Shown one piece after another: positions 32,410 through 56,775 of a stretch of 64,000 bases of DNA; the stretch's first letter is position 1, and every line of letters begins with the position of its first letter. The notes beneath the pieces are model-generated. The model made no database searches. It saw only the letters and a program-made list of their open reading frames with translations, and was not told the origin of the DNA. This DNA is from Candidatus Latescibacterota bacterium (GTDB taxonomy: Bacteria; Latescibacterota; UBA2968; UBA8231), in assembly GCA_965248265.1 (NCBI GenBank), contig CBDFJF010000002.1, positions 896,001-960,000 on the forward strand. Direction: 5' to 3'. Both the position numbers and the translations under genes were made by a program.

Positions 32410-32929
32410 CAGGGTGGATTCTCCAAGGGGCTGAGCGTGGCAAGCTGCGCCAGTGAGCCCGCCAGACGCTCTTTCAGTGAACTGGGACACATCCGAGATC
32501 AGCAGTGGGCAGCCGTCGCAGGGTGTGGGTTCTGTTTTACGTAATTGAGCCAACGAGTTGGACCCCAATTACGGGCCACGAATGTACGCCAGTGAGAACA
32601 TCGGCTGCAATCTGAGCAAAGATGTCCAAACGCCTTTCGCCAGGCGGTGGGCGCACTTAGAGCCGCTGTGGTCACAACGGCCGAGCCGGTTTCCGGCGGC
32701 ATGCCCTGAAGGGTTCTGACACCCGGGCCACTTTGCGGGTAGCCGTTGTTACACCGGGGAAGATGCGTCATCAGCGCTGGCGAGTCTGACCTGCACACCC
32801 CGCTTGAGACCGACCCGACGAGGTTCTGCCGCGGGTACCGGTGCGGCAGTGGGTGCTGAGCCGCCGCTATCGCCTGGCCTGGGACAAAGAGCTGGTCGGG
32901 CAGTGCTTGCCGTCTTCCTGCGTGTCGTC

Positions 32930-33690
32930 GACGGTGAGGACGGTCCGGAATTCGTGCTGGCGCCACCACTGAGCGACGACGACGTGCAACAAATCGTCGA
33001 GACCACAGCCCAACGCGTGGTCCGCCTGCTGCCACGGCGCGGCCTGCTGGAAGAGGGCAATACCGATCCGCTCATGGAGCAGGAGCCACTGCTTGCCACG
33101 ATCAGGGCGGCTTCGATCCAGGGCCAGGTGGCCCCGGCGAGCGTGCCGGCTAACCCGTGAGCAGGCGCCTGCTCGATCCCCAGGGCATCCGCACCGGCCC
33201 CCTGTGCTTTCGCCGCGCGCGGCTTCTCCCTGCATGCAGCCACCCGCGTGACGGCCGCCGACCGCACCCGCCTGGAAAGGCTGTGCCGCTACGTCAATCG
33301 CCCCCCGCTGGCAGCGGGCCGACTGCAAATCCTGGATGACGATAGAGTGGCCTTCGACCTGAAAACAGTCTGGTCGGACGGCACCTATCGAATTGAGCTC
33401 TCGCCACAAGAGTTGATAGAGAAACTGGCCGCCCTGGTACCGCCACTGCGCCTCAACCTGTTGTGCTATCACGGCGTCCTGGCGTCCAACGCCGCCGACC
33501 GGGCACGGATCGTACCAGGCCCGAAAGAAGAGGCCTGCGAAGCGGACCCCTGTGCGCATGCGGTGCCCATCCCCGCCCAACGTCGGCACCGCCTGGCCTG
33601 GGCTGACCTCCTCCGGAGAGTTTTTCGAATAGACGTTACCGTGTGCCCGCCTGCGGTGGTCACATGAGAATAGTCGCCGCCCTTCGCCCC
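32930..33690 (+). pseudogene. Fragmented IS91-family (rolling-circle, Y2) transposase, C-terminal half
   Basis: Pieces in different frames: RVVRLLPRRGLL, GFSLHAATRV, RLERLCRYVNRPPLA, LAALVPP, YHGVLA and WADLLRRVF..DVTVCP/CGGHMRIVAA. Confidence 0.85.
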
Positions 33691-33819
33691 AGCACGGCCC
33701 GATCCCCAGCGCTGCGTCCCCATCTCCCGCTGGCAGCTGCCGTTCCGTCCGCAGGCGCTGATCCGGGCACCCTATCCGCTTGCCCATCGTTCATCGCACC
33801 ACGATACACGCAAAAGCAC

Positions 33820-33877
33820 GGCCCTCAACACCCTCGAAAAACCTCAAACGCGCTTGACGGACGCCCGATAACGCCCT
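33820..33877 (+). repeat. About 57-bp repeat, also present at 48524-48581
   Basis: ggccctcaacaccctcgaaaaacctcaaacgcgcttgac[g/t]gacgcccgataacgccct occurs at both positions with one mismatch. Confidence 0.9.
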
Positions 33878-34079
33878 GCTATGAGAAAGCCTTCTTTGTC
33901 AAATCAGGCCGACTTGTCGGCCGCGGCGGTGCGGTTTGCGCCTGATCTGCTGTGCCGGAGCTCATCTGCCATGCTGCTGCTATGAGAAAGCCTTCTTTGT
34001 CAAATCAGGCCGACTTGTCGGCCGCGGCGGTGCGGTTTGCGCCTGATCTGCTGTGCCGGAGCTCATCTGCCATGCTGCT
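33876..34079. repeat. Exact tandem duplication with 101-bp period at the IS110 right end
   Basis: atgagaaagccttctttgtcaaatcagg...catctgccatgctgct begins at both 33881 and 33982. Confidence 0.95.
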
Positions 34080-34298
34080 ATGCGCACTCTGAATGGCCGT
34101 CGTTACGGCCGGTGCAAGTTTGGGTCCATCTGGTCACAGTGCTGCAATCTTTATATCGACCTTGCATGCAGGTCAGGGCATTATGCGCAGTCACCTGGGC
34201 CAGGGCATGGAGCTCTCAGTGCAGAGAGGTCACTCGTTCACAATTGTTTGTCGCGATCGCCTTCTCCGTGTTCATGTTCCTGGTAACAGGGTCCTTGT
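33982..34298 (-). ncRNA. Putative bridge/seek RNA of the IS110 element
   Basis: Non-coding region 3' of the transposase. It contains stems GUGACUGC/GCAGCAC, GACCU/AGGUC, GCAC/GUGC and GGCCGU/ACGGCC. Segment 34145-34155 is identical to the element's left end (35438-35448). Boundaries are inferred. Confidence 0.6.
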
Positions 34299-35342
34299 TC
34301 AAGCGGCCTGTCGCGTGTCCTGTCGTAGCGGTTGATACTCGGCGCCGCTGATCCACAGAGTGTGCAGCAGCACCGCCAGCTTGCGGGCCACCGCCACGGC
34401 CGCACGCTTCTTCCCCTTCTTGCCACCCCGCTGCGCCAGCTGCAGTCCCCAATGCCGTAGATCACAATCGGGACCCAGCGGTCCCAACAGGTAGTGACCA
34501 CATTGCACCAGCAACTTGCGCAGCAGCTCATCACCCCGTTTGGAGATGCGCATCTGCGGTTGGCCATCGCCCGACTCGTGCTGGCGTGGCTTCAGGCCGA
34601 TGTAAGCACCGACCGAGCGACTGCTACGAAACCGATGCGGATCCTCCAATACCAACACGAAAGCCAACGCCGTCACCGGACCGACCCCCTTCACCTGGGT
34701 CAACCGCGCCGTGTCCGGATACCGGTCTCGGCAGTGACGCACCAGCGTCCGTTCGTACGCACGCAGGGTGCGCGTCAACGTCGCGATGGTCCGTAGCACC
34801 GGCCCCAGAGCCGGTCTTAGACTGCTGGGCACATGCATCACCGCCCGGGTATGGAAGACCTCGGCCGAGCACTTGGGAATGCGTGCCCCCATCGACTTTA
34901 CCGCACCGCGCACATGGTTGATCAGTTTCGTCCGCGTCCCCATCAGCCGATCACGTGCACGCAGAAACGCCAGGTCGACCTGGGCGTCCTCACTGCGATG
35001 CTGGACCGGGCGCAACAAGCGCGGATCGGAACGGCCCCAACGAGCCAACGATTCGGCATCGATCGCATCGTTTTTGTCTTCACCACGCCGGTGGATCGCC
35101 CGAGGATTGGCCACCAACACCGCATGGCCCAGCTCGGTCAGCAGACGACTCATCCACGGCGAGTGCGTACCGACCTCCAGCACAATGCGGGCTCGGTCCA
35201 TGCCCGTGAAACGACGCCGCAGCGCCGTCTCCGTGGTAGGCAATCGACCTTCCTCAATCACCTCTCCCGCTTCGTCCACTCCAAACACCTGAGAGTAGCG
35301 GTCGCTCACGTCCAAGCCTATCGTTACCTGTGGGAATGTCAT
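34299..35342 (-). CDS. IS110 family transposase/recombinase (DEDD RuvC-like plus Tnp20 domain)
   Basis: IGLDVS, VLEVG, KNDAIDA, GVGPVTA, YIGLKP...ESG and ISKRGD motifs; AAAGGAGG RBS before ATG 35342. Confidence 0.95.
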   Translation of the reverse strand: MTFPQVTIGLDVSDRYSQVFGVDEAGEVIEEGRLPTTETALRRRFTGMDRARIVLEVGTHSPWMSRLLTELGHAVLVANPRAIHRRGEDKNDAIDAESLARWGRSDPRLLRPVQHRSEDAQVDLAFLRARDRLMGTRTKLINHVRGAVKSMGARIPKCSAEVFHTRAVMHVPSSLRPALGPVLRTIATLTRTLRAYERTLVRHCRDRYPDTARLTQVKGVGPVTALAFVLVLEDPHRFRSSRSVGAYIGLKPRQHESGDGQPQMRISKRGDELLRKLLVQCGHYLLGPLGPDCDLRHWGLQLAQRGGKKGKKRAAVAVARKLAVLLHTLWISGAEYQPLRQDTRQAA

Positions 35343-35697
35343 TAGGCCAGCCTCCTTTGTTTGGGCCTCGAGCCCGGTAAACCCATGTTTGGAGACCAAA
35401 GTAGGTACTCCGTGCAAGGGGGGCTGGCTTTCTCATCCAATCTTTATAACAATCGCTCTCATAGAACCACTACACATTGGCGAATCGGACTCCAACGGCG
35501 AATCGGACTCCAACGAGAAGTCCAGTTTTCTGGTAGGCCCTCGTTGTCGCCGACAAACGGATCAGTATTTCTTCGTCGAATGGAATCGCGAATCGATAGA
35601 CGTTCCTGCCACGTATCTTTCATTGGACGGTAACGGTGACTTCAAACATGGCTTGCATCCGACTTACTTCACTCGCGTGCGTTGACTGGAGGTAGCA

Positions 35698-36324
35698 ATG
35701 AATACCGAAACGAAGGTTGCTTTGATCGAGAAGTCGCCGGCCCTCATCGGTTTTCTAGTTCTCGTATCCTTCTTGTTCATATACTCCGGGAACATTGACA
35801 TGTACGTGGATCGCATCACTCGCTTCGAAATTGCCGGAATCTCATTGGAATTCTCTAAGAAGCAAGTCCCTGCGGCCTTTTCGGATGAAGTCGCGAACTT
35901 TAACCCGGGAAAAGCTCTGCGCAGTCGCATCGGGTACCTGTCAGCGCCCCTAAAAAGATCCACGATGCTTGTCCTTCACGACGAACCGTCAGTGGCCAAT
36001 TGGCTGGCTAACGTGTTCCGAGGAATGGGCATGACGGTGGATGTGGGCATCTGTTCCGATGGGGCAGCACCACTTCTCAACCACCACTACGATGTAATTC
36101 TCTCTGACATGAATTGGTCAAATTGCTCTATCGGTGCAAAAGACGCTGTCGATTTCCTTGACCAAGTGGATCCCTCTGGCGCGCGCGTTGTTTTCTACAT
36201 TAGCAATCTCATGGGTAACAGAAAGCATATTCCTTTTTACGCCCATGAACTGACCAATTCCTTCGAGGGAATGCTGAATGGTGTCTTGGATGTCATTAGC
36301 CGTAGCGAGAGACTCACCAACTAA
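35698..36324 (+). CDS. Membrane-anchored protein with a degenerate response-regulator receiver-like domain
   Basis: N-terminal TM segment, then MLVLHDEP...YDVILSDM...VVFY receiver-like pattern; GGAGG RBS. Confidence 0.6.
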   Translation: MNTETKVALIEKSPALIGFLVLVSFLFIYSGNIDMYVDRITRFEIAGISLEFSKKQVPAAFSDEVANFNPGKALRSRIGYLSAPLKRSTMLVLHDEPSVANWLANVFRGMGMTVDVGICSDGAAPLLNHHYDVILSDMNWSNCSIGAKDAVDFLDQVDPSGARVVFYISNLMGNRKHIPFYAHELTNSFEGMLNGVLDVISRSERLTN

Positions 36325-48297: not shown

Positions 48298-48480
48298 AGG
48301 AGATAGCGTTGGGACTATTTGATTTTCTGGATGATTTAGATTTTCTGGATGATTTTGATGAGGTAAGGACCAATATACAGGGCGGCGAAGCGGGAAATCT
48401 GGAGCGGCCGGGATAGCACACGCCTGGAGAGGATTGCCCCAGAGAGGCGGCTCGTAGCAGAAGCGCATAGTGAGGATAAA

Positions 48481-48580
48481 CGGCATTCTCGGGAGTCAGT
48501 CAAACGGTTTTTAGGCTTTTCGAGGCCCTCAACACCCTCGAAAAACCTCAAACGCGCTTGACTGACGCCCGATAACGCCC
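48481..48580. repeat. Long imperfect palindrome (arms of about 45 bp)
   Basis: cgggagtcagtcaaacggtttttaggcttttcgagg pairs with cctcgaaaaacctcaaacgcgcttgactgacgcccg around a short loop; the right arm recurs at 33830-33877. Confidence 0.8.
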
Positions 48581-48992
48581 TTTGTAACCACTACACATTT
48601 TGCATGTTGGTGGCCGGTTTCGAATGTGGTACCAACTCGGCAACCTAGGTCGTAAGGAGTGCGGGGTTTGTCATGCGGTTAGCTCCGATGGTGTAAGGGG
48701 GCAGCAACAACATTCTCTTCTCTGTCGCCCGGACAGGCATGGAAAATCCCTGTGTAGTCTACGACCCTACGGTATGGTCCGGATGAGCGGTTCAAGATGA
48801 TCACCCGCAACAGGGAGGCGGTCCTGGCATACATGGGCATGTTTCGCCAGACGGCATGCTCTGGCGATTGGGTGACGCGGATCCGAACATCACTGCGCTT
48901 GGAAAAATAGTGGCCGCCCTCACCGAAGCCCGCTCGATCCAGCGCTACCTGGCTCGATGAGAAAATCTTCTATGGCGATCGTACCCGTCCCA

Positions 48993-55716: not shown

Positions 55717-56775
55717 GTGTACAAGATCGCGGTTATAGGGGGTGACGGGACCGGACCCGAGGTAGTAGACGAAGGTCTCAAGGTGTTGCAGGTGGTGAGT
55801 GAAAAAGTCGGTTTCAAGTACGAGCCCACGGAGTTCGATTTCGGTGGCGACCGTTATCTGCGCACCGACGAGGTGTTGCCTGCATCTGCCGTCGAGGATC
55901 TGCGTCAGTTCGACACCATTTATCTGGGCGCCATCGGCCATCCGGATGTGAAGCCGGGGATTCTGGAGAAGGGCATTCTCCTGCACCTGCGCTTCGAGCT
56001 GGACCAGTACATCAACCTGCGCCCGGTGAAGCTCTACCCGAATGTGCCGACGCCGCTCAAGGACAAGGGGCCCGAGCACATCGATTTCGTCGTGGTGCGC
56101 GAGAACACGGAGGGCATTTACACCGGTGCCGGCGGTTTTCTGAAGAAGGGGACCCCCGACGAGATCGCCGTGCAGGAGTCGATCAACACTCGTAAGGGCG
56201 TCGAGCGTTGTGTGCGCTACGCCTACGAGTACACCCGCAAGCGCAATCGCGAAAACACACTGACCCTGTGCGGCAAGACCAACGTGCTGACCTTCGCCTT
56301 CGATCTGTGGGAGCGAACCTTCAACGAAGTCGGCGAACAAGACTACGCCGACATCAAGCGCGACTACGCCCACGTCGATGCCATCTGCATGTGGATGGTC
56401 AAGAATCCGGAGTGGTTCGATGTCATCGTTACCGACAACATTTTCGGCGACATCATCACTGACCTGGGTGCGATGATCCAGGGCGGCATGGGGATCGCGG
56501 CCGGAGGCAACATCAATCCCGAGGGCGTGTCAATGTTCGAGCCGATTGGTGGCTCAGCGCCCAAGTACACGGGTCAGGGCGTTATCAATCCTCTGGCCGC
56601 CATAGGCGCCATGCAGCTGATGATCGCGACGCTGGGAGAAGACAAGGCGGCGGCGATTGTCGAGGACGCCATCGTCGAAACGCTCGGCAAACTGAAGGAC
56701 ATGGGCGCCGGCAAGATGGGTTACACCACGTCCGAGGTTGGCGACCTGGTGGCGCAATCTGTGGCGGACGCCTGA
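55717..56775 (+). CDS. leuB: 3-isopropylmalate dehydrogenase
   Basis: [37 protein letters not shown] and FEPIGGSAP motifs; operon context. Confidence 0.93.

Follow-up and report, generated by a model that had tools for sequence, protein, structure and literature searches.

The closest described relatives of the locus analysed here are ISEc11, ISPa11 and ISKpn4/ISPst6, for which Siddiquee et al. 2024 (PMC11187229) set out the hallmarks of the IS1111 group: a transposase of 330-350 amino acids (aa) with a GL-P----SG motif, subterminal inverted repeats of 11-13 bp, extensions of 7 (or 6) bp and 3 bp, a lengthy stretch of non-coding DNA after the gene, and a promoter that forms at the circle junction. 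The other point of reference is IS621, of the IS110 group, whose single bridge RNA holds separate target and donor guides (Durrant et al. 2024, PMC11208160; Hiraizumi et al. 2024, 2026); bridge RNAs are reported in the right end of 93% of IS1111 elements, with the donor-binding nucleotides often in a multiloop (PMC11208160). Here we examine a 64-kb stretch of a Candidatus Latescibacterota genome (GCA_965248265.1, contig CBDFJF010000002.1, positions 896,001 to 960,000; the window), in which an earlier note, made from the letters alone, had seen an IS110 element with a guide RNA. With high confidence we read this element as a member of the IS1111 group that has inserted into an IS91-like terminal repeat, with a bridge RNA or seekRNA encoded in its 3' region and AG as its core dinucleotide. 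Family, RNA architecture and mechanism were already published in 2024, and there is little new biology in the locus itself; its value lies in being a clean natural example, in which four guides, the core, both ends and the empty target can all be read from the sequence alone.

The likeness to the named insertion sequences rests on their descriptions and not on direct comparison, as the protein identities given below (47-60%) are to related loci. With this in mind, the element resembles ISEc11, ISPa11 and ISKpn4/ISPst6 (PMC11187229) in its DEDD transposase of 330-350 aa with GL-P----SG, its 11-13-bp repeats, its 7- and 3-bp extensions and its long downstream non-coding region. It also shares with the seekRNAs of that study a segment complementary to the top strand that lies 5' of one for the bottom strand, the two matches overlapping in the target, and it may share the promoter created at the circle junction, represented here by a candidate hexamer. 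The target arm of ~87 nt and the closed fold of ~160 nt would lie near the short (82-96 nt) and long (154 nt) seekRNAs respectively. Unlike those elements, this one has for its target the terminal repeat of an IS91-like element and its miniature inverted-repeat transposable element (MITE) derivatives, its right end is tandemly duplicated, and it is known solely as sequence. With IS621 it has in common one RNA with separate target and donor guides, the reading of both strands of each DNA around a 2-nt core, handshake-like bases beside that core, and a discontiguous pairing with the left end (the right donor half). However, the IS621 RNA is encoded in the left end, upstream of the gene, with a simple internal donor loop and a CT core, whereas in the present element the predicted RNA lies in the right end, with AG as core and with the donor nucleotides placed in a multiloop.

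The element, its ends and its core

Positions 35441..33878 (minus strand) can be identified as one intact IS1111-group (IS110-family) insertion sequence within the window, and all the hallmarks of the group that a sequence can reveal are present (Table 1). The 347-aa transposase carries the domain pair of the IS110 family, Pfam PF01548 (DEDD_Tnp_IS110; N-terminal, DEDD/RuvC-like; E 1.5e-17) and PF02371 (Transposase_20; C-terminal; 5.6e-21), and scores 215.4 bits against NCBIfam NF033542, 'IS110 family RNA-guided transposase', for which the cutoff is 140. Its likeness to the IS621 transposase (8wt6) is weak and confined to the C-terminal domain (E 5.6e-08). Within the length range of the group, the protein also has the GL-P----S(T)G motif, as GLKPRQHESG within ...YIGLKPRQHESGDG..., and its S257 and G258 are invariant in a 29-sequence alignment (A1). 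The non-coding DNA measures 99 nt on the 5' side and 320 nt on the 3' side (421 nt with the duplicate described below), so that the longer part lies downstream of the gene, as in IS1111 elements.

Thousands of relatives of the transposase are found in the protein database, the closest being 93, 92, 89 and 81% identical, those of 89-93% from other samples. For comparison we used the best 80 of 588 confirmed metagenomic loci, with 47-60% protein identity, together with one genomic locus at 57%; among these related loci the right flank could be scored in 65, the left flank in 58 and the right end in 66.

The left end reads ATTGG-ATGAGAAAGCC and the right end GGCTTTCTCAT-AGC. The subterminal inverted repeat agrees at 11 of 11 positions (35436..35426 against 33891..33881, and once more against 33992..33982), with ATGAGAAGG as the homologous repeat in related loci, and the extensions are asymmetric: AG plus ATTGG on the left (7 bp) and AGC on the right (3 bp). 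The boundaries follow from the target. Rightward of 33877 the sequence is a repeat that is present at no fewer than 15 other sites of the genome, and its uninterrupted paralogs read ...TAGTG(G/A)(T/G)(T/G)ATAA-AG-GGC(G/A)TTATCG..., without an insert. When the left flank (...GTTATAA-AG at 35442) and the right flank (GGCGTTATCG from 33875) are joined with a single AG, the product aligns without gaps across the junction with six paralogs, at best over 63 of 65 positions; the inserted DNA is therefore 35441..33878 plus one AG. Set against these six copies, the joined flanks also show an insertion with site and orientation as in IS1111 elements, and with no target duplication beyond the shared core. 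Because the window's element provides one insertion only, site specificity as such rests on the related loci. The core dinucleotide is AG, as seen both in the uninterrupted paralogs and in the covariation of the scorable related loci; indeed, AG directly precedes the left end in 57 of 58.

Table 1. Features of the IS1111-group element and its target; positions count from the first letter of the window.
Feature	Position	Strand	Basis or remark
Left target half GTTATAA of the interrupted IS91-like repeat	35444..35450	-	joined flanks against 6 paralogs
Core AG, left copy	35442..35443	-	related loci; single AG in uninterrupted paralogs
Left terminal extension ATTGG	35437..35441	-	sequence; with AG the 7-bp left extension by IS1111 convention (PMC11187229)
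Left subterminal inverted repeat ATGAGAAAGCC	35426..35436	-	perfect 11-bp reverse complement of GGCTTTCTCAT
Transposase gene, 347 aa	34299..35342	-	open reading frame (ORF) list; ATG after AAGGAGG
Predicted bridge/seekRNA scaffold (closing helix P0, target arm P1-P4, donor hairpin P5-P6)	34055..34220	-	covariance model R1, 115.7 bits, E 5.7e-35
Loop 1, 5' strand GCAUAAUGCCCU, right-target guide	34175..34186	-	pairs with AGGGCGTTAT (33877..33868), one G:U
Loop 1, 3' strand GAUAUAAAGAUUG, left-target guide	34145..34157	-	UAUAA (left target) + AG core + AUUG (first left-end bases, handshake-like)
Donor guide, 5' side GGACCCAAACU	34117..34127	-	discontiguous pairing with left-end TTGG..T and core; covariation in related loci
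Donor guide, 3' side CAUAGCAG	34075..34082	-	equals last 6 right-end bases CATAGC + AG core
Tandem unit 1, inner right end	33979..34079	-	TTGACA 34003..33998, inverted repeat 33992..33982, extension AGC 33981..33979
Tandem unit 2, outer right end abutting the target	33878..33978	-	TTGACA 33902..33897, inverted repeat 33891..33881, extension AGC 33880..33878
Core AG, right copy	33876..33877	-	paralogs, related loci
Right target half GGCGTTATCG... and inner part of IS91-like terminal repeat	33800..33875	-	recurs at 15 or more other genome sites
Y2 (IS91-family) transposase gene, C-terminal fragment	33248..33667	+	Pfam PF04986 Y2_Tnp, 1.5e-15, profile positions 100-179 of 183

The predicted RNA and its four guide segments

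Downstream of the gene, the related loci share a scaffold in two parts. The first runs GG(Y)GACUGCG, a variable strand, a hairpin, a second variable strand ending AG-AU(U/G), and GCAGC(R)CC; the second runs GGAYCYCAnnn-UGCAC, a hairpin, and GUGCG-(R)AUGGAAG ... TTGACA ... GGCCTTCTCAT-GGA-AG, after which the likeness among the loci ends. In the window, the helix GGUG-A-CUGC/GCAG-CACU holds two loop strands of 10-12 nt, GCAUAAUGCCCU (34186..34175) and GAUAUAAAGAUU (34157..34146), around the hairpin GACCU/AGGUC, and the second hairpin, UGCAC-C-GGCCGU/ACGGCC-GUGCG, is followed by CAUAGCAG (34082..34075). Both units appear in the minimum free energy fold of the single sequence, the energy of which is unexceptional (-103.4 kcal/mol, z -1.47, with 11 of 100 shuffles as good). 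It is the comparison across loci that supports the helices of this conserved non-coding region. In a 27-sequence alignment, 83.2% of the cells of a structure drawn by hand are paired as opposed to 73.6% after shuffling, and 17 pairs show changes on both sides; none of 500 shuffles reached the observed values, and sliding the helix partners, as a control, lowered pairing to 30-47%. The covariance model built on it (R1) found 74 matches in 85 sources, 47 of them outside the seed, with the 115.7 bits of the window in the upper half of the 74. The long-range helix P0 joins sequence 5' of the target arm to sequence 3' of the last guide, with a mean of -16.2 kcal/mol for partners from the same locus versus -11.3 for partners from different loci (21 of 70 loci under the cross-locus 5th percentile); with P0 supported in this way, the donor-reading nucleotides sit in a multiloop.

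The guides themselves were examined by taking four segments per locus from the model alignment of the 74 loci and comparing them with the ends and flanks of the same locus. These loci fall into 49 distinct right-target guide groups, so that the signal does not come from one lineage, though 16 loci share one target. In 49 of 65 loci, the reverse complement of the 5' strand of loop 1 has at least 7 consecutive bases in common with the right flank of the same locus, compared with 0.68% of 3960 cross-locus pairs. In the window this strand, GCAUAAUGCCCU, has AG-GGCGTTAT (33877..33868) as its partner, with 10 pairs including one G:U, and G34174 additionally pairs with C33878, the last base of the right end; the same strand fits perfectly a variant, AG-GGCATTAT, that occurs at three other sites of the genome. 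In the 3' strand of loop 1, the match to the left junction of the same locus is 6 bases or more for 47 of the 58 loci, compared with 1.8% of 3232 cross-locus pairs; the window's match is 7 bases including the core. In 40 of 45 loci the two bases following the core are those with which the left end begins, although in 36 of those 40 they are the invariant AT. The loop strands thus co-vary with both strands of the target around the core.

The donor side follows the element's own ends in the same manner. The segment before UGCAC tracks the left extension: ATGGG goes with CCCCA, ATGAG with (C,U)CUCA, ATAAA with AUAUUA and, in the window, ATTGG with CCCAAA. The segment after GUGCG equals the right end plus AG over 7 aligned bases in 64 of 66 loci, and, whilst ATGGAAG (47 loci) is the common class, the minority classes ATAGAAG (13) and, with one locus each, ATGGAGG, ATGAAAG, ATGGTAG and the window's own ATAGCAG all co-vary with the right end.

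Part of what the earlier note had claimed is borne out by these results. The intact IS110 element that it proposed is supported by the intact reading frame, the domains and the NF033542 match, and is of IS1111 type; the stems, loops and hairpins it placed on the minus strand are present, and a fold check reproduces both units; separate target and donor segments can be read in a 3' non-coding RNA scaffold, as covariation, the covariance model and guide matching concur; and, when checked for covariation across related loci, the loop bases are not constant and vary with their own ends and flanks. The identity TATAAAGATTG that it saw between 34145-34155 and 35438-35448 occurs at exactly these two sites in the 64-kb window, both on the minus strand, with 0.00 expected from 100 shuffles. 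The complementarity of 10 out of 11 bases between 34174-34184 and 33868-33878, which it took as either a second target contact or a coincidence of the scaffold, is likewise present, and is the real right-target guide. One additional site matching 34174-34184 with a single mismatch, at 56575, sits in a stretch that looks coding and is put down to chance.

From these parts a mechanism can be proposed by analogy with the relatives studied. The 3' non-coding region would encode a bridge RNA, or long seekRNA, of ~160 nt in which P0 closes a multiloop, and the transposase would bind this RNA. The internal loop of the target arm (P1-P4) would read the target: its 5' strand would base-pair to the right target half (AG-GGC[G/A]TTAT) on the top strand, and its 3' strand, which is the left target half plus core (UAUAA-AG), would pair with the bottom strand and run on into AUUG, the first bases of the left end, in a handshake-like contact. 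Flanking P5-P6, two single-stranded segments would read the element's own ends, GGACCCAAACU the left end and CAUAGCAG the right end plus core. The complex of transposase and RNA would then join right end, AG and left end into a circle with the predicted junction ...ctcatagc-AG-attggatgag..., that is, CTCATAGC-AG-ATTGGATGAG / GGCTTTCTCATAGC-AG-ATTGGATGAGAAAGCC, which would place the conserved TTGACA beside the left end, and the circle would recombine at AG with ...TTATAA-AG-GGCRTTAT.... Of 68 loci, 62 have a TTGACA-like hexamer whose end lies 18-20 nt ahead of the right end (19 nt in the window, which is one of the 62); it fits a candidate junction promoter element of the kind described for the IS1111 family (PMC11187229).

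The 16 loci with a common target (L009-L011, L013, L015, L017, L019, L020, L022, L023, L027, L032, L043, L044, L046 and L080, from different metagenomes) share ...TTCTC(C/G)GA-AG-TTCGC... and an extra hairpin in the linker between target arm and donor guide. Their left extension is ATGAG in 9 of 11 scorable cases and ATGGG in L013 and L023. These loci make up a sub-lineage that probably homes to one widespread repeat. Taken as a whole, the 74-locus subfamily, with one scaffold and 49 target guides, constitutes a comparative set for engineering IS1111-type recombinases.

Several observations weigh against the reading of the locus as an IS1111-group element with a guide RNA. Helix P1 (CUGG/CCAG) is paired in 52.5% of cells of a MAFFT alignment, too low a proportion for the model, from which it was omitted. 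The search of 33500-35800 against Rfam 15 matched no family, yielding two chance hits far below the gathering scores; as these hits named no bridge or seekRNA family, we do not count the result against membership. At the present site the right-target guide pairs through one G:U, and the left-end guide carries A:A and C:A mismatches. Across the related loci, the thresholds are missed by 16 of 65 right and 11 of 58 left flanks, and an anchored 9-nt measure of the right guide reaches 8 of 9 or better in just 24 of 65 loci (against 1.4% of cross-locus pairs), being weaker than the common-substring measure because many guides are only ~7 nt long. L047 has one mismatch in its donor guide, and in L056 the target guides fit neither flank and the right-end extension differs from its own donor guide. 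On the paralog side, a 17-nt insert in the left flank confines the alignment to 6-9 nt left of the junction. Finally, a sigma-70 pattern scan of the integrated element returned no promoter; Logan contigs from four runs of one sample, possibly the source of the assembly, show no joints, no circle junction and no emptied site, which carries little weight as contigs drop rare variants; and the element is single-copy although six near-perfect targets stand uninterrupted.

As to L056, its scaffold is intact (127 bits) and its near relative L031 fits on both sides; off-target insertion, decay or a chimeric contig may lie behind its misfit. The 17 extra bases of the left flank (ctatgagagcgattgtt, window 35451-35467, minus strand) split TAGTGGTT from the ATAAAG of the IS91-like end repeat, and bear on the opposite strand CTCTCATAG, which resembles a right end of IS1111 type; we considered whether they are the remnant of an inverted right end, and found no consistent model. 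A 24-mer of the same flank, TAGTGGTTCTATGAGAGCGATTGT, recurs once in the genome (L005, G000:C2:2197528-2197551) and is followed there by unrelated sequence beginning TGTCAA.

Mobility, right-end duplication and competing readings

Is this element still mobile? A single copy beside six unoccupied targets means that recent activity is not demonstrated, and it is quite possible, if on balance not probable, that the element is correctly built and no longer moves, either having come in recently and never transposed within this genome, or having been disabled by the duplication of its right end or by the guide mismatches; its guide would then be readable and unused. In keeping with this, one full copy of the element occurs in the genome, beside which only two short relics of related elements are seen, namely a left-end remnant (L003, G000:C2:2441077-2441119; AG-ATTGGGTGAGAAAGCCAGCCCCCCTTGC, 93% identity) in non-IS91 surroundings and a 5' remnant (L002, G000:C2:2224672-2224809) that is 82% identical to window 35427..35288, with no further IS110-family gene found in the same genome by tblastn. 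The near-perfect targets are empty, the right end is duplicated, and there are no contigs of a circle or of an empty site; the loose contig ends at 33877, 35414 and 35445 are accounted for by a paralogous repeat copy and the L003 remnant. A DNA search covering 75 genomes from the same family likewise turned up no copy, and a protein search covering 167 others from the phylum no close one. Against loss of mobility, the reading frame is intact and full-length, with the residues that are invariant in the 29-sequence alignment; all helices and the four guide segments are intact, with a model score in the upper half of the 74; both copies of the right end are complete; and proteins 89-93% identical in other samples argue that the lineage is alive.

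The duplication itself had been overlooked in the earlier note. Tandem Repeats Finder reports for 33876..34079 a period of 101 nt, 2.0 copies and a 100% match, and each unit has its own TTGACA, inverted repeat and AGC, so that the element has two complete right ends. That the duplication is real is supported by the Logan unitigs of the same four runs from one sample: the repeat has ~2x the depth of the element body, and a 58-nt unitig specific to the junction stands at single-copy depth, spanning 28 + 30 nt beside the junction, just below the bridging rule of 31. None of the other loci among the 68 (window included) with a recognisable right end carries such a duplicate. At the junction, ...CTCATAGC|AGCAGCATGG..., AG is the only sequence common to both parents at the crossover. 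The crossover accordingly lies at the right-end boundary, within the core, and is linked to an AG inside the sequence coding for the donor guide.

The coincidence of one breakpoint with the exact element boundary suggests involvement of the recombinase, and the other breakpoint falls inside the DNA encoding donor guide CAUAGCAG. As a donor guide must copy the right end, every element of this kind contains a decoy of its own end ~100 nt inside, and the duplication would record the enzyme, or recombination between the 8-bp repeat shared by guide and end, acting on that decoy. That the 101-nt duplication is the fossil of an aberrant reaction by the element's own recombinase, and not a replication slip, nevertheless seems to us rather unlikely, if far from negligible. 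The internal breakpoint, GCGCAT-AG-CAGCATGG, has no complementarity to any of the four guides, so half-match or off-target recombination, an idea taken from the preprint 10.64898/2026.08.31.748434, is unproven as the cause. Two other routes could also account for the duplication: a plain slip at 2 nt of microhomology, or recombination across the 8-bp guide/end repeat CATAGCAG with a subsequent CAG slip, as the exact repeat would yield a unit of 98 nt, and not 101, unless the CAG triplet had also slipped. If the recombinase were responsible, guide-encoding DNA would be an inherent hotspot for end rearrangement in RNA-guided elements; as it stands, a right end duplicated at the core is a small curiosity on how such enzymes misfire.

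The duplication also bears on the anatomy drawn in the earlier note, which had the element at 33982-35448 with a TA core, loop 1 as a donor loop reading the circle junction and CAUAGCAGCA as the target guide. This arrangement is now very improbable. The 11-nt identity between 34145-34155 and 35438-35448 behind it is real and beyond chance, and 'tagcag' does follow both copies of ...ctttctca. However, seven of those 11 bases, TATAAAG, are part of the target repeat plus core, as paralogs and joined flanks agree, which moves the left end from 35448 to 35441. The right end set at 33982 falls within the tandem repeat and misses the inner right end (33979) by 3 nt, the actual end being 33878; the flank 'tagcagggcg' to which the second loop was matched is at 33881..33872, 101 nt beyond the end then assumed. 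With AG in place of TA in uninterrupted paralogs and related loci, the junction ...gattgt-TA-gcagggcg fits no paralog, and the 12-nt match to a circle junction ...ctcaTAtaaagattgg... was founded on the wrong junction. The loop assignment, too, has to be reversed: the equivalent strands of loop 1 follow locus-specific flanks, making it the target loop, and the equivalents of CAUAGCAG follow their own right end in 64 of 66 loci, so that this segment matches the right end and not the target.

Equally implausible is the idea that the conserved 3' region works as DNA, or as an end sequence bound by protein, and not as an RNA, its flank matches being carried-over target: an inner target-like copy could in principle be captured DNA, but the helices co-vary as expected of RNA, the target is matched by complementarity in one guide strand and in the same sense by its partner, with overlap at the core (the published RNA-DNA geometry, not a copied duplex), and relatives of the same family have been shown experimentally to need an RNA that co-purifies (PMC11187229).

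The target repeat and its surroundings

Returning to the IS1111-group reading with an AG core, the target is recognisable by its copies as the terminal repeat of an IS91-like (Y2 transposase) element and of a MITE family. Next to it, a fragment of a Y2 transposase gene reads toward the targeted end (Table 1). Four of 16 copies of the end repeat, the window's among them, sit 213-348 nt past a Y2 transposase gene, and others are solo copies; the IS91-like copy that received the insertion has the look of a truncated or decayed one. The six uninterrupted sites of the genome mentioned above match the 16-nt target with at most one mismatch.

IS4321 and IS5075 reportedly land in the inverted repeats of Tn21. 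The present element is like them, and like ISEc21, in being aimed at a conserved sequence of another mobile element, which is here the end repeat of a Y2-transposase (IS91-like) element and its MITE-like derivatives. In the case of ISEc21 the target is described as a conserved stretch of IS3-family transposase genes (PMC11187229). A literature search, at the level of its listing, brought up no paper on IS91-like ends as a target; the IS91-like/MITE end repeat would join the list of mobile-element sequences to which such elements home.

Around the insertion, a few minor features can be added. Upstream of the Y2 fragment, window 32500-33250 contains many overlapping ORFs of high GC content, one of which was searched and had no Pfam match. 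Just beyond the left flank, the 18-nt unit GGCGAATCGGACTCCAAC is repeated in 2.1 perfect tandem copies (window 35479-35515). Farther along, window 48468-48593 holds a 126-bp MITE-like element made of two inverted 58-nt copies of the end repeat, 78% complementary to each other, one arm of which bears an unoccupied, near-perfect target, TTACAA-AG-GGCGTTATCG.

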